Origin: Candidatus Campbellbacteria bacterium CG22_combo_CG10-13_8_21_14_all_43_18
GTDB lineage: Bacteria > Patescibacteriota > Minisyncoccia > Phycocordibacterales > GCA-002724975
Length of the DNA stretch: 37,212 bases
Assembly (NCBI GenBank): GCA_002771565.1
Contig: PCTS01000034.1
Location: 877 to 38,088, forward strand
Reading direction: 5' to 3'
In this document: piece after piece, positions 3,470 through 37,212 of the stretch
Numbering within the stretch: position 1 is the first letter of the stretch
Layout: each line of letters begins with the position of its first letter
Made by a program: the position numbers and the translations under genes
Notes under the pieces: model-generated
Told to the model about the DNA's origin: nothing
The model's database searches: none
Seen by the model: only the letters and a program-made list of their open reading frames with translations

Positions 3470-4447
3470 CTAAAACGGGTTCCTCGCTCCACGCACCTCA
3501 AAGTGGACATGGTTGCCGGTGGATTTACCGGTTGAACCGACATAACCTATAACCTGACCCTGGACGACGGCTTGCCCGGCATAGACGATATTTTTTGAGT
3601 TGTGGGCGTAGAGAGTTTGCGTTCCGTTGTCATGATTTATGACGATATAGTTTCCGTAGCCTCCGTTCCAGCCGAAACTTTTGCTGATAATAACCTGGCC
3701 CGAAGCCGAGGCAAAAATCGGCTCTCCGAAGTTTGTGGCAAGGTCCACGCCGTTATAGCCGTGAAGACCTTGTGATTTTCGCCCTCCGCTGATTGGCCTC
3801 ATATAATATCCCTCATAACTCGGGCCGCCGGCCTCTCGCAAAGTAACCGTCTTGGTTGCGGTTGTTTTTGGCGTTGAAATTTCTCCGTCCGGAATGACAA
3901 TAATGTCGCCCGGCTTGACGACAGACTCCAAAGAAAGACCGTTGTAGGCAAGCACTTCTTCATAGTGTCCTTTATATTTGGCCGTAATAGCTTTGACCGT
4001 TTCTCCAAAAACAACCGTATGTCTGACGCCGGAGACGGGAAGAATTATCAGAGTCTGGCCTTCTTTGATGACGGAGCCATTTTTAAGATCATTGGCCCAA
4101 AGAATGGTATTAACCGATACGCGGAACATTCGGGCAATCTGCGACAAAGAGTCTCCTTCTCTTACAACATAAACGCTAATCTGGTCAGAGTTGGGGGCGT
4201 CTTCAATGTCGGCCAGAGAGCCGGACGGGCCGGTTTCCGGAAGAAGGGAAGTCCCTCCGACAATGGTAATATCCCCGCCGCCTTTTACGACAGACGGGTC
4301 TATGTTTAGAGCCGCCTGAAGAAGAGCCATGTTTTGGGAATTCTCAATTTTTACGGATTTCGCTTCCGTTTTGGTAAAAATATTGTCCAAAAAAGAGAAA
4401 CCCCCGGCATAAGAGCGGAGCGGAAAAAGAAAAACGAAAAGAACCAA
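3470..4447 (-). CDS. LysM-domain M23 family metallopeptidase (peptidoglycan hydrolase)
   Basis: 325 aa with a TTG start at 4447. It has two LysM-like segments (YVVREGDSLSQIA..., HTVVFGETVKAITAKY...). The C-terminal M23 signature includes HGYNGVDLA and GNHVHFEVRG. Confidence 0.88.
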   Translation of the reverse strand: MVLFVFLFPLRSYAGGFSFLDNIFTKTEAKSVKIENSQNMALLQAALNIDPSVVKGGGDITIVGGTSLLPETGPSGSLADIEDAPNSDQISVYVVREGDSLSQIARMFRVSVNTILWANDLKNGSVIKEGQTLIILPVSGVRHTVVFGETVKAITAKYKGHYEEVLAYNGLSLESVVKPGDIIVIPDGEISTPKTTATKTVTLREAGGPSYEGYYMRPISGGRKSQGLHGYNGVDLATNFGEPIFASASGQVIISKSFGWNGGYGNYIVINHDNGTQTLYAHNSKNIVYAGQAVVQGQVIGYVGSTGKSTGNHVHFEVRGARNPF

Positions 4448-4672
4448 AACGACTTTGGCGTAAAACGCGGCTTTCCCCTCTGAATTTATGGCCTGATTTC
4501 TTGGTAGAAAAAAACCGCTAAAATCAGGTTCTTCTGTTTTCGGTTGAATAAGCCCTTATTTATGTAATAATTCCGATTTTCAGACGATTTATGGCTTCAT
4601 AGAGCCATTTCAGGTTCAGCAATTCTCACTACATTCGGATTATAGGCAATAGCCGGGTAAAGTCAATACCGA

Positions 4673-4681
4673 TGTGGATAA
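4673..4681. promoter_or_regulatory. Perfect DnaA-box 9-mer (TGTGGATAA = reverse complement of TTATCCACA)
   Basis: Exact match to the E. coli-type consensus DnaA box, 31 nt upstream of the pcrA ATG in a divergent intergenic region. Confidence 0.35.
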
Positions 4682-4711
4682 GGAAAAACAGGCCTTTTTC
4701 CGATATACTCA

Positions 4712-6673
4712 ATGGGAAATATGATGCCCAAGGAACTGAAAGAGCTGAATCCTCCGCAAAAAGAAGCGACCGAGCACAAAAGCGGCCCGCTTCTGGTTTT
4801 GGCGGGAGCCGGAGCCGGAAAAACCAGGGTTATAACCTTGAGAATCTATAATCTTATAAAATCCGGCATTGCTCCCGATAAAATTCTCGCCATAACCTTC
4901 ACCAACAAAGCGGCCAAGGAGATGCGGGAAAGAATTTTTGCTCTCATCGGAAAAAATCCATATTCGGGCTATGGAGAAGAACGGGGCGAAAGGCCTTTTG
5001 TCAGCACTTTTCACTCTCTGGGAGCCCATATCCTTCGAGAAAATCACAAAGCCTTCGGCCTTTCAAAATATTTTAATATCTTTGACAAAAATGATTCTTT
5101 GAGGGCGGTCAAAGAATCTTTGAGAGAGGCGGGATATGACCCGAAGCAGATAAACCCGGGCAAGGTCCTCGCCGCCATATCGAGAGCCAAGGGAGATTTT
5201 ATTGGGGCCGAAGAATATAAAGAAATGGCAGGGGACGATTTTTGGGGCAAAGTCGTGGCCAAAACATGGCAAAAGTACGATGCCAGAATCAGGAGGGAGA
5301 ATGCTTTGGATTTTGGAGATCTTCTTCTGGAGACGGCCGGGCTTTTGGAAAAAGATAGGGCGGTCAGAAATTTCTATCAAGATAAATGGCATTATGTTCA
5401 CATTGACGAGTATCAGGACACGAACAAAGCGCAGTACAAAATCGCCAGCCTTCTTTCGGAGAAACACAAAAATATCTTTGTCGTCGGCGATGTTGACCAA
5501 AACATCTACAGCTGGCGAGGCGCAAGTGTTAGAAACATTCTCGGCTTTGAAAAAGATTTTCGAAATACCAAGACAATAAAGCTGGAGCAGAATTATCGTT
5601 CAACCAAAAGAATTATTGAGGCCTCAAATCTGATTATCAAAAAAAACAAGAATCGCTACGAAAAAAACCTTTTCACAAAAAACGAAGAGGGAGAAAAGAT
5701 AGGTTTTTTCGGCGCCTATGACGAAAAAGAGGAGGCTGGCTTTGTTTCAGGGGTTTCGGCCTTTCTTTTAAGGCGGGGGATTCGCCCAAGCGAAGTGGCC
5801 GTTTTTTACCGCGCAAATTTTCAATCCAGAAATTTGGAAGAGATTTTTTTGATGAAGGGAATTCCTTATCAGGTCCTGGGGACAAGATTTTTTGAAAGAA
5901 AAGAAGTCAAAGATGTCATTTCTTTTATTAGGGCCGCCCTAAACCCGGACAGCCTTTCCGACATAAAACGCGTGGTGAATGTCCCGCCACGGGGTATCGG
6001 CAAGGTAACTCTTATAAAAATGTTTTCAGGAAAAACCGACAGCCTCCCTCAAAAAACGAAGGAGAGGGTTGAGGATTTTTACAAACTTTTGAAGAAAATC
6101 AAAGAGAGAGCGCTTGAGGGAAAGCCTTCGGAGACCGTCAAATTCATCATTAGAGAATCAAATCTTCTGAAAAAATTAAAAGAGGGGACGGAAGAAGACC
6201 GCGAAAGGCTTGAAAACATCAAGGAGCTCGCAACTCTCGGAGCAAAATACGACCACCTTCTTCCGGAAGAGGGAATCCAAAAACTTTTGGAAGAAGCTTC
6301 TTTGGCAAGCGAAGCGGACAGCCTGGACCACAAAACTCGAAACAAAGACGGAGTAAAGCTTATGACAATCCACGCTTCCAAGGGGCTGGAATTTGATTAT
6401 GTTTTTGTAACCGGCATGGAGGAAGGTCTGTTTCCGCATAACGGCGAAGAAGAGAAAGAAGACGAGGAAGAGGAAAGAAGGCTTTTTTATGTCGCCCTGA
6501 CAAGAGCCAGAAAAAAAGTTTATCTGACTTACTCCAACCAAAGAACCATCTACGGGCACCGCAAGCCAAACTTGCCGTCAACATTCCTGACGGAGTTTGA
6601 TGAAGATATCCTGGAAGAGGAAAACTTCCCGAATGAAAACACCTCAAACGAAAACACCATCCACCTCGACTAA
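4712..6673 (+). CDS. pcrA: UvrD/PcrA/Rep family ATP-dependent DNA helicase
   Basis: 653 aa. SF1 helicase motifs present are AGAGAGKT (I), DEYQDTN (II), VGDVDQNIYSWRGA (III), QNYRST (IV), TIHASKGLEFDYVFV (V) and YVALTRARKKV (VI). Alternative in-frame ATGs lie at 4721 and 4724. Confidence 0.92.
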   Translation: MGNMMPKELKELNPPQKEATEHKSGPLLVLAGAGAGKTRVITLRIYNLIKSGIAPDKILAITFTNKAAKEMRERIFALIGKNPYSGYGEERGERPFVSTFHSLGAHILRENHKAFGLSKYFNIFDKNDSLRAVKESLREAGYDPKQINPGKVLAAISRAKGDFIGAEEYKEMAGDDFWGKVVAKTWQKYDARIRRENALDFGDLLLETAGLLEKDRAVRNFYQDKWHYVHIDEYQDTNKAQYKIASLLSEKHKNIFVVGDVDQNIYSWRGASVRNILGFEKDFRNTKTIKLEQNYRSTKRIIEASNLIIKKNKNRYEKNLFTKNEEGEKIGFFGAYDEKEEAGFVSGVSAFLLRRGIRPSEVAVFYRANFQSRNLEEIFLMKGIPYQVLGTRFFERKEVKDVISFIRAALNPDSLSDIKRVVNVPPRGIGKVTLIKMFSGKTDSLPQKTKERVEDFYKLLKKIKERALEGKPSETVKFIIRESNLLKKLKEGTEEDRERLENIKELATLGAKYDHLLPEEGIQKLLEEASLASEADSLDHKTRNKDGVKLMTIHASKGLEFDYVFVTGMEEGLFPHNGEEEKEDEEEERRLFYVALTRARKKVYLTYSNQRTIYGHRKPNLPSTFLTEFDEDILEEENFPNENTSNENTIHLD

Positions 6674-6678
6674 ACCCC

Positions 6679-6701
6679 ATTGAGAGGTCCGACCTCTCAA
6701 T
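6679..6701. repeat. REP-like palindromic element, copy 2
   Basis: ATTGAGAGGTCCGACCTCTCAAT, with the core 21-mer at 6680..6700. It lies 6 nt after the pcrA stop and 28 nt before the transposase ATG, and is followed by TTTAATAAAAATT. Confidence 0.9.
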
Positions 6702-6716
6702 TTAATAAAAATTAGG

Positions 6717-6728: not shown

Positions 6729-7403
6729 ATGAGAAGAAATCCGCTAGTAAATGATGAATATTATCACATCTACAATAGGGGTGTGGACAAGAGAAAAATA
6801 ACAATGGATAAGTTTGATTCTGATCGTTTTATAACAAGTCTTGTTGAATTCAATTCCATTGATCCGATTGGCAGTCTTTATAGACAAAATTTACAAATTA
6901 ACAAAGAAAAAAGAAATTTGAGAGGTCCGACCTCTCAAATAGTTGAGCTTGTTGCTTATTGCCTTAATCCAAATCACTATCACCTCATCCTTAAACAAAA
7001 AACTGATCGGGGTATAAGCGAATTTATGAAGAGACTTGGGGTCGGATACACTTTGTATTTTAACGAAAAATATAAGCGTACTGGCGTTTTGTTTCAAGGA
7101 AAATTTAAATCAGTACACATAAGCAGGGATGATTACCTAAATCATTTGAGTGTATATGTAAATTTAAATGATAAAAAACATAATTTGAGAGGTCCGACCT
7201 CTCAAATGGTGAGGTCAAGTTGGAGTGAATACTTGGGAAAACCTTGGCGTGATCAAAACATTTGTTCTGGAAAAGATATAATCTTAAATCAATTCGAGTC
7301 AGTGGGTGATTATAGGAAGTTTGCAAATGGATCTATTTTGGAGATTATTGATAGAGGAAGAAAAGAGGACGAAATTAAGGAATTAATACTTGAATGGATT
7401 TGA
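6729..7403 (+). CDS. IS200-like / REP-associated tyrosine transposase (RAYT, Y1 HUH family) carrying two in-frame REP copies
   Basis: 224 aa. It has the N-terminal YHIYNRGVDKR motif, the HUH motif NHYHLIL, FMKRLGVGYTLYFNEKYKRTGVLFQGKFKS, and the catalytic-Tyr region LSVYVNLN. The peptide NLRGPTSQ occurs twice and is encoded by the palindrome copies at 6918 and 7185. The stop TGA (7401..7403) lies inside copy 5. Confidence 0.85.
   Translation: MRRNPLVNDEYYHIYNRGVDKRKITMDKFDSDRFITSLVEFNSIDPIGSLYRQNLQINKEKRNLRGPTSQIVELVAYCLNPNHYHLILKQKTDRGISEFMKRLGVGYTLYFNEKYKRTGVLFQGKFKSVHISRDDYLNHLSVYVNLNDKKHNLRGPTSQMVRSSWSEYLGKPWRDQNICSGKDIILNQFESVGDYRKFANGSILEIIDRGRKEDEIKELILEWI
6916..6940. repeat. REP-like palindromic element, copy 3 (inside the transposase CDS, in frame)
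   Basis: ATTTGAGAGGTCCGACCTCTCAAAT, with the core at 6918..6938. It is read as N-L-R-G-P-T-S-Q-I. Confidence 0.9.
7183..7207. repeat. REP-like palindromic element, copy 4 (inside the transposase CDS, in frame)
   Basis: The same 25-mer, with the core at 7185..7205. It is read as N-L-R-G-P-T-S-Q-M and begins a few codons after the YVNLN tyrosine motif. Confidence 0.9.
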
Positions 7404-7422
7404 GAGGTCCGACCTCTCAAAT
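7398..7422. repeat. REP-like palindromic element, copy 5 (provides the transposase stop codon; sits just upstream of rsmA)
   Basis: The same 25-mer, with the core at 7400..7420. Here it is read in a different frame (att TGA), which terminates the ORF. Confidence 0.9.
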
Positions 7423-7426
7423 TATT

Positions 7427-22514: not shown

Positions 22515-23861
22515 ATGAGTATGAACAATCAACAACTCTGGGAAAGCGCCATGATTGAGATTGAGTTGAGTGTTTCTCCGGCTAATTTTAAGACCTGGTT
22601 TAAAAACACCTTTGTTTTGAGGCAGGAAGAAGGGATTGTTTCCGTGGCTGTGCCGAGTGAGTTTGTCCGCGGCTGGCTCCAGAACAAATTCCATAAACTT
22701 ATAATGAAGACTTTGCGCTCTTTATCAAACAACGTCAGGTCAATAGAATATGTCGTCTCAAAAGAAAGGCCGTCTCTGAATAAAGGCCTGGAAATGGGAG
22801 CGGGTTTTGGAAAAATAGAGCTCCCTTTGGATAATTTTTTTGTAAACAAAAAAGACAACCTTAACCCAAGATATGATTTTGATTCCTTTGTGGTCGGTTC
22901 TTTCAACGAGCTGGCCTACGCCGCCGCCCAAGCGGTTATAAAAAAACCCGGAGGAGCCTACAACCCCCTTTTTGTTTACGGCCCGACGGGAGTCGGCAAG
23001 ACGCACTTAATACAAGCCATCGGAAACAAAACACGAGATACCTTTCCGAACAAAAGCATTTATTATCTGACCTCGGAAAAGTTTGTCGTGGATTACACAA
23101 ACTCCATTCAAGCAAACACCGTCAGTTCTTTCAAAGAAAAATACAGAAAACACGGGGTTATAATTATGGACGACATTCAGTTCTTCTCAAATAAAGAAAA
23201 AACCCAAGAAGAGTTGTTTCATTTGTTCAACACCCTTTATGAAAATGGCGGGCAAATAATTTTTTCCTCGGATCGCCACCCGAATTTTATCCCCGGACTG
23301 GAGGATAGACTTAAATCAAGGTTCGCCCAGGGAATGATTGTTGATATTTCTCCGCCCGACCACGAATCAAGAATTGCTATTATTAAAAAAAAGGCGACAC
23401 AGAACGGTTTTCTAATACCGGACGAAGTTGTTGATTATTTAGCTATTTCGGTTGAAGGAAGTATCAGAGAGTTGGAGGGACTTCTGAACTCCATTATCTG
23501 TCAGGCCCAGCTTAAAAATAAAACTCCGGATTTGAATGATATTAAAAATTTAGTCAAGAACAATCTTAAGCCGAAAAAGATGGTTCCGATTGAAAATATT
23601 GTTAAAACCGTGGCCGGTTATTATAATATTGAACCGGAAATTATTTACAAAAAAACCAGAAAAAAAGAAATAGTCAAGCCGAGACAGCTTATTATGTATA
23701 TTTTAAGGGAAGATTATAATATACCTTATCCGACAATAGGACAAAAACTTGGAGGAAGAGACCACACAACCGTTATTCACTCTTATGAAAAAATAAAAAG
23801 AGAATTGAAAGAAGGAAGTTCAATAATTCAGGAAATTGAACAATTAAGGTCAATGTTATAA
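22515..23861 (+). CDS. dnaA: Chromosomal replication initiator DnaA
   Basis: Walker A is GPTGVGKTHL and Walker B is IIMDDIQF. The C-terminal DNA-binding signature is GGRDHTTVIHSYEKI. I prefer the ATG at 22515 (MSMNNQQLWE...) over the ORF-track start at 22464, which would run through the promoter. Confidence 0.93.
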   Translation: MSMNNQQLWESAMIEIELSVSPANFKTWFKNTFVLRQEEGIVSVAVPSEFVRGWLQNKFHKLIMKTLRSLSNNVRSIEYVVSKERPSLNKGLEMGAGFGKIELPLDNFFVNKKDNLNPRYDFDSFVVGSFNELAYAAAQAVIKKPGGAYNPLFVYGPTGVGKTHLIQAIGNKTRDTFPNKSIYYLTSEKFVVDYTNSIQANTVSSFKEKYRKHGVIIMDDIQFFSNKEKTQEELFHLFNTLYENGGQIIFSSDRHPNFIPGLEDRLKSRFAQGMIVDISPPDHESRIAIIKKKATQNGFLIPDEVVDYLAISVEGSIRELEGLLNSIICQAQLKNKTPDLNDIKNLVKNNLKPKKMVPIENIVKTVAGYYNIEPEIIYKKTRKKEIVKPRQLIMYILREDYNIPYPTIGQKLGGRDHTTVIHSYEKIKRELKEGSSIIQEIEQLRSML

Positions 23862-24084
23862 CTTTGTTAAAAAACGAAGAATAAACTGTTTAAAAGTTTT
23901 ATAAATAATTTAAAAAAAACAAAACTTATTTTAATAAAAAAATAATCATTAACTTTTCCCAAAGAAATCAATAATCAAACAAAAAATAATAAAAACAAAG
24001 AAAGCCCCAAATAAAACTTATCAACCTATTCACACCCCTAATAATAGTATTAACTTTATAAAGAAATAATTTATTACCACTATT
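23862..24084. other. Candidate oriC / DNA-unwinding region (dnaA-dnaN spacer)
   Basis: This is a 223-nt spacer. By my count 23881..23940 has 5 G+C out of 60 and 23941..24000 has 11 out of 60. Only degenerate DnaA-box-like 9-mers are present (TTATCAACC, CTATTCACA; 2 mismatches each). The dnaA-dnaN position is the classical one. Confidence 0.5.
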
Positions 24085-25182
24085 ATGAAATTTATTTGTT
24101 GGAAAGAAGATTTGGAAAAAGTTTTAATCAAAGCCGAAAGGATTACCGGAAAAAACACAACCTTGCCGGTTTTGAGAGGAATTTTTTTTGATGTTGGTGA
24201 AAAAATAATAGTTAAGTCCACAAATCTTGATATTGGTTTGGAGATGGAAGTTTTTGGAAAAAAAGAAAAAGAAGGAAAAATTCTTGTTGATGGAAATGTT
24301 TTGTTTAATGTTATTTCAAATATTAAAAAAAATATAAAACTGGAAATAAAAAAAGAAGATAAAAAAATGGCTATTTCCGGAGAAAAAATCAAAGCTAATA
24401 TAGCAACCCTGCCGGAGGAAGATTTTCCTTCCATACCGAAAATAAAAAAAGAAGATGAATTTTTTCTATCGCCGCAAAAAATAACAAAGGGTCTGAAATC
24501 GGTTTGGTTTAGCGCCTCAAACTCAAACATAAAGCCGGAACTATCCGGAATTTACATTTACAAAAGCGGAGAAAAAATAATTTTTGTCTCAACAGACTCC
24601 TTCAGACTTTCCGAAAAAAGCATTCCCATTGAAAATCTCAAGGAGTTTGAGGCTTTTCTTTTACCAACAAAGAATATTCCGGAAATAATCCGTGTTTTAG
24701 AAGGAGAAGAGAAGGATGTTGGAGTCGTTTTAGGAGAAAGTCAAATCTCTTTTTTTTCTGATAATTTATATTTAACATCAAGAATAATCAGCGCCGATTT
24801 TCCGGATTACAAACAAATAATACCGAAAGAAATAAAAACAACGGCGGTTGTTTTGAAAGAAGATTTTTTTTCATCACTCAAGCTGGCCAACATTTTCGCG
24901 GATAAATTCAATCAAATTATTTTTAAAATAGACACCGATAAAAAATTTTTTCGCGTTGAATCAAAAAACCCGGAAAAAGGAGAACACACAAGCGATATTG
25001 AAGCTTCTCTTGAAGGAGAGTCTTTAGAAATAGGTTTTAATTATAGGTATATTATGGATGTTTTCGCTTCCATTCCTTCCGACAGCCTAAGTCTTTCTTT
25101 TTCCGGTCCCGGCCGCCCCCTTTTAATCAAAGGAGTTTCAGACGGCTCTTTTTTATACATCGTTATGCCGATGAACAAATAA
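24085..25182 (+). CDS. dnaN: DNA polymerase III beta subunit (sliding clamp)
   Basis: 365 aa, directly downstream of dnaA. The overall pattern (LP(V)L..I, STDSFRLSEK, GFNYRYIMD, PMN C-terminus) is typical of DnaN. Confidence 0.9.
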   Translation: MKFICWKEDLEKVLIKAERITGKNTTLPVLRGIFFDVGEKIIVKSTNLDIGLEMEVFGKKEKEGKILVDGNVLFNVISNIKKNIKLEIKKEDKKMAISGEKIKANIATLPEEDFPSIPKIKKEDEFFLSPQKITKGLKSVWFSASNSNIKPELSGIYIYKSGEKIIFVSTDSFRLSEKSIPIENLKEFEAFLLPTKNIPEIIRVLEGEEKDVGVVLGESQISFFSDNLYLTSRIISADFPDYKQIIPKEIKTTAVVLKEDFFSSLKLANIFADKFNQIIFKIDTDKKFFRVESKNPEKGEHTSDIEASLEGESLEIGFNYRYIMDVFASIPSDSLSLSFSGPGRPLLIKGVSDGSFLYIVMPMNK

Positions 25183-25196
25183 GATAAATAGTTATT

Positions 25197-25682
25197 ATGC
25201 TGGTTTTAGCCATAGACCCTGGATATGAAAGACTCGGAATTGCCATTCTAAAAAAAAACAAAAATAAAGAAGAATTGGTTTACTCCGATTGTTTTGAAAC
25301 AAAAAAAGAAATTCTTTTTAAAAAAAGATTTAATTTTTTGGGGCGGGAGATAAGAAGAATTATTAAAAAATTCAAGCCGGAAATCCTGGCCATAGAGAGT
25401 GTTTTTTTTAATAAAAATCAAAAAACGGCCATGAAGGTCTCGGAAATTAGAGGGGCCATCATAAACATTGCCTTATTTTATAATCTTGAAATAAGAGAAT
25501 TTACCCCCCTTCAAGTAAAGGTGGCCGTCACCGGCTACGGCCGAGCTCCCAAAAACCAGGTTATTGAAATGGTTAAAAAACTTATAAAAATTGACGATAG
25601 AAAAAGAAAAGATGACGAGTTTGACGCCATCGCCGTCGGCCTGACTTGCTTGGCCTCGGAAGTTCTTCTAAAAAAACAATAA
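25197..25682 (+). CDS. ruvC: Crossover junction endodeoxyribonuclease RuvC
   Basis: 161 aa with the catalytic acidic motifs LAIDPG, AIESVFF and DEFDAIAVGL. Confidence 0.88.
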   Translation: MLVLAIDPGYERLGIAILKKNKNKEELVYSDCFETKKEILFKKRFNFLGREIRRIIKKFKPEILAIESVFFNKNQKTAMKVSEIRGAIINIALFYNLEIREFTPLQVKVAVTGYGRAPKNQVIEMVKKLIKIDDRKRKDDEFDAIAVGLTCLASEVLLKKQ

Positions 25683-28707: not shown

Positions 28708-28754
28708 ATTCTAAAAAATGTTTCCCCGATAAAAAATAATACATACCATAATAT

Positions 28755-28790
28755 ATACTATAATACATACTATAATACATACTATAATAT
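28755..28790. repeat. Tandem 12-bp repeat (ATACTATAATAC x3) in the ruvB-yebC spacer
   Basis: The copies lie at 28755..28766, 28767..28778 and 28779..28790 (last base differs), with degenerate copies on both sides (28738..28795). Each unit contains TATAAT on the plus strand. Confidence 0.9.
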
Positions 28791-28801
28791 ATATTTTTTA
28801 A

Positions 28802-31769: not shown

Positions 31770-31902
31770 TCTTCAAATCATAACTCTTTTGGCCGTAACC
31801 CTCAACAAAAGAGCGTCTTTGGGCGGATGTCGGGCCTCTGCCCAAGGAGGTGGTCTTATCAAGGGCGTCTAAGTGTAAAAATGGATGAGGTTATTCAAGT
31901 GG

Positions 31903-31931
31903 TTGACTATTGGTTTGTTTTGTAGTATTAT
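31903..31931 (+). promoter_or_regulatory. Putative promoter of the GC-rich lipoprotein gene
   Basis: TTGACT (31903..31908), a 17-nt spacer, then TATTAT (31926..31931). Confidence 0.4.
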
Positions 31932-31989
31932 TCACACAGAAACAGAAAAAAACTCTGGATTGACCGCCCATCATACGAGGAGAACCGCA

Positions 31990-32403
31990 ATGAAGCGCTT
32001 GATGAAATGCTTGTTTTTGTTCCCCCCGCTTCTTCTTGCTCTCGGCTCGTGCTACGCGAGTCTGGGGGTAAGGAGTGGCCTCGGTATCTCCATTGTTATG
32101 GAAAGGGCCGGGGAGTACGCCAATGTTTTTGTCACAAACCAGTTTGCCGGCAACAAACTGGTTTGTGAGCAGTTAACCGCGGACGAAGCCCCTCGGTGCG
32201 TCTATCGCCCACCGGGAGGGTTTACCGCAACCTCCGTCTGCGGAGAGATTTACATCCAGAGCCGCCGGATCGGCTCCGGAGAAATCGTCGGTTTTACTAG
32301 GTTTAACTACTGCGACTGGTATCGCGGTAGCGGGTTTGGCCGGTATGATTTCCCGGTCTACCGCATCCGGGAAATCAGTCCGGTGGTGCCGGCCGGCCGG
32401 TAG
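31990..32403 (+). CDS. Small Cys-containing lipoprotein of unknown function, in a GC-rich islet
   Basis: I prefer the ATG at 31990 (MKRLMKCLFLFPPLLLALGSC, a lipobox-like LGSC), which has an AGGAG Shine-Dalgarno 8 nt upstream. The ORF-track start at 31885 adds 35 unlikely residues. Two 60-nt samples (32041..32100 and 32161..32220) contain 35 and 39 G+C. The gene is followed by a strong terminator. Confidence 0.65.
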   Translation: MKRLMKCLFLFPPLLLALGSCYASLGVRSGLGISIVMERAGEYANVFVTNQFAGNKLVCEQLTADEAPRCVYRPPGGFTATSVCGEIYIQSRRIGSGEIVGFTRFNYCDWYRGSGFGRYDFPVYRIREISPVVPAGR

Positions 32404-36157: not shown

Positions 36158-36646
36158 TTAAAATTTTTTATAAACAACTTTATTTTGGAGACTTTCCAGA
36201 TATCTTTTGAAATTACGCGAAGATGTCTCCAGAGTTTTTGAGTTTGTTTCGGGGTGAAAATAGACTCTCTCTTTCTTCAGAAGGTCTTCGTCTATCAGGA
36301 CGAGAACATCTTTTTCTTTGTTGTTGATGAGAGCGTAGGGGCTGACCGACCCCGGGGTCGTGCCGAGTTTTTGGCGAAGTTCTTCCGGGGAAGCAAAACT
36401 CAACCGGCTTTCTTTCAGGTTCTTTTGCAGTTCGTTCTGGTCAATTCTTTTTTCTCCGGAAATTATGACGAGGTAATAAGCGCTTTTATTCTTGTTTCTC
36501 ATCAAAAGACTCTTGCTTCTTTCTCCCGGAACCTCGTCTTTATGAAGCAGAGATTCTTTAACCGTAAAAACCGGCCTATGCCGATAGACCTTGTATTTTA
36601 TCCGCAAGAAGTCCAAAGTTTGGTAGATGTCCATTGTGCCCAGCAT
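36158..36646 (-). CDS. YbaK/ProX-type aminoacyl-tRNA deacylase-like protein
   Basis: The low-GC part of the ORF (from MLGTMDIYQTLDFL..., ATG at 36646 or 36634) has the YbaK-like pattern ...KSLLMRNK...YLVIISGEKRID...PGSVSPYAL... . The 88 upstream codons of the ORF-track call (to 36910) are R/P/S/G-rich translation of a GC-rich non-coding segment. Confidence 0.65.
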   Translation of the reverse strand: MLGTMDIYQTLDFLRIKYKVYRHRPVFTVKESLLHKDEVPGERSKSLLMRNKNKSAYYLVIISGEKRIDQNELQKNLKESRLSFASPEELRQKLGTTPGSVSPYALINNKEKDVLVLIDEDLLKKERVYFHPETNSKTLETSSRNFKRYLESLQNKVVYKKF

Positions 36647-36649
36647 TCT

Positions 36650-36997
36650 TGAAATAGCGCGAACCGTTTTCGCTCCTCGACAGGCTCGGGGCGAGGAAAG
36701 TCCGCCGCCTGCGCGGCCGAAGCCACTTCGGTGGGGCGAAGGCGCGCGAAAAATCCGAAATGCGACGCCTGCCCGCCGACCCGTCCTCCGAAGTCTTGAC
36801 GAAGGGGGAAGTCTCGTTGTGCACTTCCGAAGCCTCGTGCGGAGGAGTGGCGCAGGCGGCGAAGCCGCACCGACTTGTCCGTCCGAAGCTTTAGCGAAGG
36901 AGGATGACAATTTCCCTCCCTCCCTCTTTAGGGGCTATGGCGGGCACGGCAAGTTTTTCTTTGGCGGCGAATAAATTGAGTTTGCGAAGCAAACACC
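36650..36997. ncRNA. GC-rich, densely base-paired non-coding segment: candidate structured RNA or long structured leader; strand and identity unresolved
   Basis: I counted 158 G+C in the 240 nt from 36661 to 36900. Nested helices are 36703..36709/36963..36969, 36767..36777/36939..36950 (11 bp, one bulge) and 36784..36790/36840..36846. There are also hairpins CCAC-UUCG-GUGG (36723..36734) and GCGGC-GAA-GCCGC (36856..36868). Nine CGAAG motifs occur. An exact GAGGAAAGTCCG lies at 36693..36704 on the plus strand. All long ORFs here overlap in several frames and have non-protein-like composition. Confidence 0.45.
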
Positions 36998-37003
36998 AAA
37001 CGT

Positions 37004-37032
37004 ATTGTATGAAAAATGGAGCAATAAATCAA
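37004..37032 (-). promoter_or_regulatory. sigma70-type promoter directed into the GC-rich segment and the ybaK-like gene
   Basis: The minus strand reads TTGATT (37032..37027), a 17-nt spacer, then TACAAT (37009..37004). Confidence 0.5.
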
Positions 37033-37071
37033 AAAGAAATAGGGCCGCGTCGTTTTTACACAACGCGACCC
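37030..37071 (-). terminator. Rho-independent terminator (minus strand)
   Basis: The 11-bp stem 37071..37061 / 37052..37042 has two G-U wobbles on the minus strand; on the plus strand these positions are C-A mismatches. It is followed on the minus strand by UAUUUCUUUUUGAUUU. Confidence 0.6.
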
Positions 37072-37095
37072 TTTGGAACCGAACAGCGAACACTA

Positions 37096-37212
37096 TCACC
37101 GATACTGCGGATGGGGCTGGAGGAGCGCACGGTGCGGAACCCACGCTGGATAGTGCACCCAGAGCGAGTTCGCGACGAGAACGCCGTCGGCATAGCCTTT
37201 GGCGACGCACGG
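37096..37212 (-). CDS. Possible 3' end of a GC-rich gene entering from the right edge (partial)
   Basis: A minus-strand frame is open from the window edge and reads ...PCVAKGYADGVLVANSLWVHYPAWVPHRALLQPHPQYR, ending at a stop at 37098..37096 just upstream of the terminator. Only 38 codons are visible, so the product is unknown. Confidence 0.3.
   Translation of the reverse strand, partial: PCVAKGYADGVLVANSLWVHYPAWVPHRALLQPHPQYR

Follow-up and report, generated by a model that had tools for sequence, protein, structure and literature searches.

The DNA analysed here, called the window, is a stretch of 37,212 nucleotides from Candidatus Campbellbacteria bacterium CG22_combo_CG10-13_8_21_14_all_43_18 (GCA_002771565.1, contig PCTS01000034.1, positions 877 to 38,088 of the forward strand). 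Near its right end, a GC-rich non-coding island lies next to a gene for a ybaK-like aminoacyl-tRNA deacylase. An earlier interpretation made without database searches (the sequence-only reading) had described this segment as one nested structured RNA of approximately 350 nt. The island was found to contain at least three significant same-strand copies of a hairpin repeat with a symmetric GAA/GAA internal loop, together with one or two decayed copies. It is probably a pile-up of this small interspersed repeat, resembling a bacterial interspersed mosaic element (BIME) built from repetitive extragenic palindromes (REPs), rather than a single selected RNA fold.

The features of the locus are as follows, where R1 denotes a covariance model of the GAA/GAA hairpin with which the window was scanned with the filters off.

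36158 to 36634, minus strand: ybaK-like aminoacyl-tRNA deacylase gene (PF04073), flanking the island.
36650 to 36958, plus strand: the GC-rich island proper, unchanged in both strain variants and containing every repeat copy.
36693 to 36704, plus strand: 12-mer identical to the CR-I block of RNase P RNA, judged coincidental, with no partner blocks and no RNase P match.
36706 to 36748, plus strand: repeat copy 1 (R1 20.1 bits, E = 0.005, outside the training set; also recognised by manual pairing and by a grammar scan).
36778 to 36811, plus strand: repeat copy 2, canonical (R1 46.4 bits, but part of the training alignment, A1; fits the strict search pattern).
36828 to 36864, plus strand: degenerate or partial copy with a disrupted outer stem (R1 9.2 bits, E = 4.7, model positions 12-27).
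36872 to 36906, plus strand: repeat copy 3, canonical with one additional G in the 5' arm (R1 41.5 bits, E = 7.7e-9, outside the training set).
36980 to 36994, no strand assigned: GUUUGC-GAA-GCAAAC mini-hairpin of the GCGAAGC type, which holds the ninth CGAAG and lies outside the block common to both variants.
37004 to 37032, minus strand: predicted sigma-70-like promoter TTGATT-N17-TACAAT, facing ybaK; present in strain variant A only and absent from variant B (locus L388).
37041 to 37072, minus strand: intrinsic terminator (13-bp stem and U-run), ending a GC-rich trailer of approximately 170 nt after tRNA-Lys(UUU).

A composition count gave a G+C content of 0.658 for 36661-36900 compared to 0.446 for the whole window, in agreement with the earlier estimate of about 66%. 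The pentamer CGAAG occurs nine times on the plus strand, as had been noted (starts at 36718, 36737, 36789, 36800, 36828, 36860, 36884, 36895 and 36985), compared to 0.52 occurrences expected from base composition, and CTTCG occurs once on that strand. None of the seven open reading frame (ORF) translations from the island and its right flank matched Pfam, which fits the earlier statement that no credible coding frame is present. The island sequence was unchanged across at least five independent assemblies (JGI, ENA, Logan and NCBI), indicating that it is real DNA and not an assembly artefact.

The R1 scan of the window returned three significant copies, all on the plus strand and all within the island, and nothing above chance elsewhere in the window or in the loci of relatives. 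Likewise, a grammar scan for CGAAG-hairpin-CGAAG found such pairs in the island and nowhere else in the window. In copy 1, a CCTG tag and a CGCG(G)CC/GGCGCGCG outer stem are combined with the GAA/GAA loop and an inner hairpin of greater length, CCAC-UUCG-GUGG, which is the C(UUCG)G stem-loop of the sequence-only reading (CCACUUCGGUGG, present at 36723-36734). Copy 2 reads GACCCG-UCCUCC-GAA-GUCUUGAC-GAA-GGGGGA and copy 3 reads GACUUG-UCC(G)UCC-GAA-GCUUUAGC-GAA-GGAGGA. The 23-nt core of copy 3 is the same as in dozens of copies from other phyla among the matches listed in the scans described below. The stretches 36787-36809 and 36882-36904 are paralogous over 23 nt, and their common positions gave the strict search pattern. 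Three facing CGAAG pairs had been proposed earlier; they match copies 1 to 3, except that 36800/36828 is an alternative pairing between adjacent units. Across 2.7 Mb of module-bearing loci, these copies were the only parts of the island to be found again.

The long-range helices proposed for the island were also examined. The helices 36703-36709/36963-36969 and 36784-36790/36840-36846 are each complementary at seven of seven positions, and 36767-36777/36939-36950 does pair, not as one 11-bp helix but as 7 + 3 bp with a bulge. However, a perfect 12-bp helix, 36703-36714/36850-36861, competes with the proposed outer helix. The long-range helices are built from repeated UCCUCC/GGAGGA and GCC/GGC arms, so that several alternative pairings are possible. 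The view that the island is one nested RNA of about 350 nt was not upheld, given these alternative pairings, the lack of an Rfam match and the absence of the island from the sister species.

The surroundings of the island were resolved with two strain variants. Locus L389 (GCA_002796365.1, PCXD01000022, Candidatus Campbellbacteria, variant A) matches the window at 99.98% identity and spans the whole region, in the order DoxX, tRNA-Lys(UUU), 22 nt to the window end, the trailer of approximately 170 nt, terminator, promoter, island and ybaK. The tRNA-Lys gene was confirmed at 5813-5884 of L389, ending 22 nt before the equivalent of window position 37212, and the spacer between tRNA-Lys and ybaK is 600 nt long. 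In the window itself, ARAGORN detected neither a tRNA nor a tmRNA. The promoter that had been proposed on the minus strand was found, with the 13-bp terminator ahead of it. In the co-occurring variant B, L388 agrees with the window at 100% identity as far as 36958 and is unrelated above it. There it has 2 kb in which an IS481-like rve transposase and two small ORFs lie, and common sequence resumes just past tRNA-Lys. The inserted segment (L388:541-1290 and 1396-1998), which replaces 223 nt of spacer, encodes the transposase, a small membrane protein and a Cys-rich zinc-ribbon-like protein. An ENA contig, L002, stops exactly at 36958.

In the closest other species, in which ybaK is 69% identical and the flanking gene order is the same, tRNA-Lys is followed by an unrelated spacer of 98 nt and no island is present. 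Another relative, L018, has other genes at the site and no ybaK, and the island is missing upstream of ybaK in L005-L013. Thus, the spacer that holds the island, beside a tRNA gene, varies between strains and between species, and this variability probably explains why several assemblies break off in or near the region. Enrichment of the repeat at contig ends was considered as a cause of the assembly breaks and rejected: 10 copies lay within 150 nt of a contig end compared to 7.0 expected, which is not significant, and the strain variants diverging at 36958 together with the IS481-like element explain the breaks better.

The trailer after tRNA-Lys (window 37076-37212, minus strand; L389:5885-6085) is GC-rich and non-coding; its two open frames have no protein homologues, and no Rfam family matches it. 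Either a co-transcribed small RNA or further repeat debris may be present here. An upstream protein gene at the window end had been considered and was dropped, since L389 shows this non-coding trailer after tRNA-Lys. The minus-frame peptide at the window end shared no words with any database protein, a plus-frame fragment of 68 amino acids matched two repetitive proteins only, and a codon-degenerate pattern from the window end had no match in metagenome contigs. Peptides of ybaK gave no match against GTDB genome contigs. A 5S rRNA, the 3' end of 23S rRNA or of tmRNA, the variable and template repeats (VR/TR) of a diversity-generating retroelement (DGR), a CRISPR array and an inverton were each rejected for 37040-37212 and the assembly breaks on sequence and repeat evidence.

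The repeat unit is approximately 30 nt long and consists of a 5' single-stranded GRCYTG tag, an outer stem of 5-6 bp, the symmetric GAA/GAA internal loop between closing C-G and G-C pairs, and a mini-hairpin that usually has G-C, Y-R and Y-R pairs around UU. Both GAA triplets, their closing pairs and the tag are invariant. With the strict pattern TCCGAAG-NN-TT-NN-CGAAGG-NGGA, at least 120 matches were found in JGI metagenome contigs and at least 120 in GTDB species-representative genomes, and 12 places matched in IMG/VR viral contigs; these were exact-pattern scans and the counts are lower bounds. The free positions of the pattern were far from random. Among the unique contexts of the matches listed, 115 had CC..GG, 64 had CT..AG and nine had TT..AA, with few single mismatches, indicating two covarying base pairs around the UU turn. 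In 116 unique contexts of the matches listed, information was approximately 2 bits per column across the unit and approximately zero upstream of -7 and downstream of +23. This sharp drop outside -7..+23 shows a conserved object of approximately 30 nt, c-t-T-G-T-C-C-TCCGAAGCCTTGGCGAAGGAGGA.

Because the strict pattern fixes the outer stem, the viral contigs were rescanned with the core alone, CGAAGCYTTRGCGAAG; many of the core matches are due to chance. At least four consecutive outer pairs were present in 30 of the 98 unique matches, compared to a mean of 6.0 and a maximum of 15 in 2000 shuffles. More than 16 different outer stems were found, for example UCCUC/GAGGA, CCCGC/GCGGG, UCAGC/GCUGA, CCAUA/UAUGG and GGCUG/CAGCC, and the six bases ahead of the stem were GRCYTG in most of the stem-forming matches. 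Longer inner hairpins, as in copy 1, occurred in the flanks of the first matches (CUCC-UAA-GGAG, CGUC-GCA-GACG and CUC-GAA-GAG). In alignment A1 (62 sequences), 97.3% of the cells were paired compared to 83.8% after shuffling, and seven of nine pairs had changed on both sides. When the partner was shifted by 1-3 columns in either direction, pairing fell to 31-65%. A1 was partly selected for pairing, and the core-only scan of viral contigs is the unbiased test of the outer stem. The mismatches at the inner pairs, approximately eight U-G and 12 C-A among the matches listed, were of similar frequency and thus carry no RNA-specific wobble signature. A correlation between tag and loop (CTTG/CTTG, TTTA/TTTA) exists but is confounded by host G+C, and it was set aside as evidence of a real link. 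These findings show that the recurring CGAAG module picked out by the sequence-only reading is a hairpin with two covarying stems present at hundreds of unrelated loci.

The hosts of the matches listed in GTDB belong to more than 15 bacterial phyla. They include Patescibacteria (Gracilibacteria and Levybacteria among them), Verrucomicrobiota, Kiritimatiellia, Planctomycetota, Bacteroidota, Balneolales, and Alpha- and Gammaproteobacteria, with the cultured Mesorhizobium, Plastoroseomonas and Rhodohalobacter also among the hosts. Myxococcota, Bdellovibrionota, Thermodesulfobacteriota, Nitrospirota, Acidobacteriota, Chlamydiota, Elusimicrobiota, Omnitrophota, Cloacimonadota, Marinimicrobia and Binatia were also represented. 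Several metagenome-assembled genomes (MAGs) contributed at least two loci each to these matches. No Rfam match was found for the element in the whole window and the module-bearing loci, and in 20 + 2 such loci the Rfam search gave chance-level matches only. A 33-nt consensus gave only chance-level matches in the phage and plasmid records of cultured organisms. The motif was found nowhere described in the full-text literature searched, and the repeat seems to be undescribed, with the reservation that such absence is no proof of novelty.

Long ORFs were depleted at the repeat copies, the median spanning ORF being 558 nt compared to 1068 nt at random positions. Nevertheless, approximately 35-47% of the copies lay in long open frames, and a third or more in ORFs measuring 900 nt or above. 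Where the ORF had 600 nt or more, 18 copies were sense and 13 antisense, so that there was no orientation preference relative to genes (all three counts among the matches listed). Inserts of the 'LSSEALAKED' type were found in DnaG (L096 and L029/L060/L103), CTP synthase (L062), RNase R (L102), a Cas4/Cas1-like protein (L138) and a TamB-like protein (L105). The CTP synthase (pyrG) of L062 aligned end to end with the solved structure 3nva, with a single gap of exactly 10 residues opposite the element, which indicates a clean in-frame insertion of 30 nt. By direct reading, the commonest variant (CCTTGG) is free of stop codons in all six frames. A second additional segment in the L062 pyrG ORF (4014-5714, residues ~133-150), '...TKVDEAFASSSRC...', is also missing from the solved structure and suggests another short palindromic insertion from a different family.

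A search for target-site duplications of 2-7 nt gave none, whatever the boundary offset. In this the repeat differs from MITEs, the miniature inverted-repeat transposable elements, as it does in the length of its unit, only approximately 30 nt. R1 detected approximately 20 further copies in 698 kb around the ascertained matches. Six head-to-head doublets, in which a minus copy precedes a plus copy 25-60 nt away and the tags stand face to face, were present in unrelated taxa (L142, L174, L192, L199, L235 and L236), and same-strand tandem arrays occurred in L059, L132 and L193. Taken together, the family has sharp boundaries, covarying stems and a very wide phylogenetic range, and it occurs as singlets, doublets, clusters and in-frame insertions.

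Two further arrangements were observed. In a Bacteroidetes MAG (L150:7370-7960), six copies lie within 570 nt, and three of them occupy the T-loop position of tandem tRNA 3' fragments adjoining an intact tRNA gene. In addition, a conserved RNA-like element of approximately 190 nt, running from UUCACCCGCC... to ...GGGGCUCCAC, carries the GAA/GAA hairpin at a fixed place while its flanks are unrelated. It was found in L021, L025, L032, L041, L093 (e.g. 5000-5190), L104, L111-L113, L116, L119 and L124, has no Rfam match, and is directly followed by a start codon in some cases. It could represent a novel leader or some other non-coding RNA, or else a mobile element's terminal part.

The repeat was compared with the small palindromic repeats already known from bacteria. 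REPs and their BIME and REPIN arrangements are repetitive extragenic palindromes mobilised by RAYT Y1 transposases; their known tags are GTAG and CGTC, and they are normally lineage-specific. Both they and the GAA/GAA repeat are imperfect palindromes of 20-40 nt with a short 5' single-stranded tag and a conserved in-stem mismatch, singlets, inverted doublets and clusters are found in both, and both lack a target-site duplication. The tag of the present repeat is GRCYTG, in contrast to GTAG or CGTC, and its copies occupy more than 15 phyla among the matches listed, where REPs are normally confined to single lineages. Tagged REP superfamilies are described in PMC3733652. In a tblastn search with E. 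coli RayT, Y1 ORFs near repeat copies were found only in L123 (1753-2187) and L170 (1963-2532). Both ORFs are RAYT/IS200-like, have HUH and Y motifs, and lie upstream of the copy on the same strand; they are regarded as a lead only.

Rickettsia palindromic elements (RPEs), which Ogata and co-workers reportedly described in 2000, are said to be selfish palindromic DNA lying in frame in protein genes. Like the GAA/GAA repeat they are palindromic and stop-free, and they sit in frame in conserved proteins without destroying them; they are 100-150 bp long and confined to Rickettsia, whereas the present unit has 30 nt and occurs across bacteria. The small dispersed repeats of cyanobacteria, reportedly treated by Elhai and co-workers in 2008, and the GC clusters of yeast mitochondrial DNA are likewise GC-rich palindromes of approximately 20-50 nt that nest and cluster in AT-richer genomes and occasionally lie in genes; they differ in sequence family and have a narrow host range. 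We know of no GAA/GAA loop or YTG tag described for either of them. The element is therefore filed among the small palindromic interspersed repeats but in neither the REP nor the RPE family, since REPs are extragenic, lineage-specific and differently tagged, and RPEs are 100-150 bp long and belong to one genus.

On this basis, the following model is proposed for the island as a repeat pile-up. The unit would spread as a folded single strand, most plausibly single-stranded DNA recognised by a trans-acting enzyme, by analogy with the action of RAYT-type Y1 transposases on REPs and REPINs. Recognition by such an enzyme would depend on the tag and the GAA/GAA mismatch, so that the stems could vary freely. 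The copies at the ybaK locus would be selfish or neutral passengers, and their repeated complementary arms (UCCUCC/GGAGGA and GCC/GGC) would account for both the elevated G+C and the seemingly nested architecture. For the 5' untranslated region of ybaK, where the copies would be transcribed as the UUC/UUC complement, any effect would be incidental. The conserved asymmetry of the GAA triplets and the tag lies on the plus strand. The minus strand carries ybaK, the predicted promoter and tRNA-Lys. If co-transcribed with ybaK the units would be the UUC/UUC complement, which argues against an RNA role at this locus.

Several observations weigh against this interpretation. Approximately 60% of the island (36650-36705, 36749-36777, 36812-36871 and 36907-36958) has no recognisable copies. 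The folding energy of the minus strand was low compared to shuffled sequences (z = -3.2) with a well-defined centroid, so that some local RNA role is conceivable; for the plus strand it was modest (z = -1.6), and the folding energies of the island are not decisive evidence. No mobilising enzyme was identified, and in only two of approximately 365 loci was a RAYT-like Y1-transposase ORF located at a distance of 350-450 nt from a copy, which is possibly the background rate. Near-identical sequence across phyla is unusual for REPs, and the element occurs also inside genes (in frame within pyrG, dnaG and rnr), while classical REPs are strictly extragenic. One insertion in dnaG is common to the diverged relatives L029 and L060, so that at least some copies are old.

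A bolder view of the family is that the GAA/GAA hairpin with its GRCYTG tag represents a new pan-bacterial mobile 'nano-element', or a universal docking hairpin of some machinery. This is put forward tentatively, as a possibility that we judge to fall short of even chances. As a 'nano-element' it would spread by a route not described for REPs or MITEs and tolerate translation in six frames. From bacteria of the candidate phyla radiation (CPR) to Proteobacteria, it would seed insertions in essential genes and clusters like the island.

An unlikely alternative is that the island encodes a functional plus-strand non-coding RNA, a sponge or scaffold of the CsrB/RsmZ type in which each GAA/GAA hairpin is a ligand-binding unit. 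The uniform direction of the copies, with nine CGAAG compared to one CTTCG, speaks for it, as do the RNA-like motifs of the plus strand (sheared-GA-type loops, cUUCGg and CUUG-type loops) and the existence of same-strand tandem arrays in the three loci named above. However, no plus-strand promoter or terminator was found, and the family shows neither an orientation preference relative to genes nor an excess of G-U over A-C at the inner pairs. The sister species lacks the island, and copies lie in coding sequences both ways round.

It is quite unlikely that the island is instead a long structured minus-strand 5' leader regulating the ybaK-like gene, as an attenuator or as a protein- or tRNA-sensing element. 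The sequence-only reading had named such a leader as one of two strand options, and the good promoter, which follows the upstream terminator and points towards ybaK with no terminator between, would suit it, as would the minus-strand fold. Against it, that promoter is wholly absent in variant B, and no T-box or other Rfam leader match was obtained. The orthologues in L005 and L006 follow an unrelated 98-nt spacer, and a leader of this kind is missing in L010, L011 and L018. Read on the minus strand, moreover, the modules are UUC/UUC, and the CUUCGG sequences, taken earlier for tetraloops, close no hairpin.

That the island is a foreign GC-rich fragment left by an element once integrated beside tRNA-Lys, with the repeats as incidental cargo, is distinctly improbable. 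The 3' flank of a tRNA gene is a classic integration site; the spacer lies directly downstream of tRNA-Lys and holds the IS481-like transposase in variant B, and the G+C content is 20 points above that of the genome. No integrase or att duplication was found for the island, however. BLAST against phages and plasmids and exact k-mers against viral contigs gave no match, and Pfam revealed no coding remnant. This explanation is also compatible with the repeat pile-up and does not exclude it.

The CR-I match of the island, which had raised a possible link to RNase P RNA, was confirmed: an exact GAGGAAAGTCCG at 36693-36704 equals the CR-I block GAGGAAAGUCCG / GAGGAAAGUCC, the 5' strand of P4. The 12-mer lies directly 5' of repeat copy 1 without a pairing partner. 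With up to one mismatch, 0.47 matches to it are expected per window; an exact match is therefore uncommon, although it was noticed post hoc. The Rfam 15 search of the whole window at gathering scores gave no match. At E<=10, the 813-nt and 351-nt segments gave chance matches of 13-15 bits only and no RF00010 or RF00011, with a floor of approximately 13 bits in the 351-nt search below which an RNase P score would escape. In CPR bacteria, diverged RNase P RNAs can occur whose scores fall below the Rfam thresholds, so that lowered ones are needed (PMC8172020), and for this reason the RNase P blocks were also checked by eye. ACAGAA and CGGCTTA (the CR-V/P4 3' strand, ACAGAA..CCGGCUUA-like) were missing from 36600-37212, and the GGUAA and GUGAAA blocks were not found either, as had been stated earlier. 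By manual reading, the best candidate partner, GGCGGC at 36963-36968, forms a G-(U bulge)-CCGCC/GGCGGC pairing that resembles the P4 core, but it is preceded by a U-run. The island had no BLAST match in the loci of relatives, unlike a conserved RNase P-type gene, and its likeness to bacterial RNase P RNA is limited to the 12-nt CR-I block, with CR-II to CR-V, a P4 partner and a covariance-model match all lacking. With the four blocks absent, the sole P4 candidate placed after a U-run, and a segment full of repeat copies that is missing in the sister species, a highly diverged RNase P RNA is very unlikely to the point of being hardly credible, and this reading is already largely refuted.

Other parts of the window were also unusual in composition or repetition. 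The hypothetical gene at 31885-32403, between the T2SSE ATPase and tsaE genes (L002:4451-4675; L005:14001-14475; L018:1551-2125), reaches a local G+C of up to 0.69 in the species and its relatives and has no Pfam domain. A stretch of low G+C (0.23-0.35, compared to a background of 0.45) lies at 23400-25500, and a 12-nt unit, ATAATACATACT, is repeated approximately five times in tandem at 28736-28793. The perfect palindrome TTTGAGAGGTC(C/G)GACCTCTCAAA occurs in five copies (30-66, 6669-6705, 6907-6943, 7174-7210 and 7389-7425). It has no relation to the GAA hairpin and is possibly a terminator-like or REP-like repeat specific to the species.

For genome annotation, GC-rich foldable islands produced by this repeat can pass for structured RNAs in scans for non-coding RNA, and recognising the element avoids false calls of non-coding RNAs, RNase P RNAs and small ORFs. 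The element adds 10 residues to proteins such as CTP synthase and primase. If it is indeed undescribed, it would be among the most widely distributed short repeats of bacteria. Its tag, its covarying stems and the invariant GAA/GAA loop imply a conserved trans-acting partner, and a concrete hunt for the factor that mobilises or binds the repeat is thereby opened.

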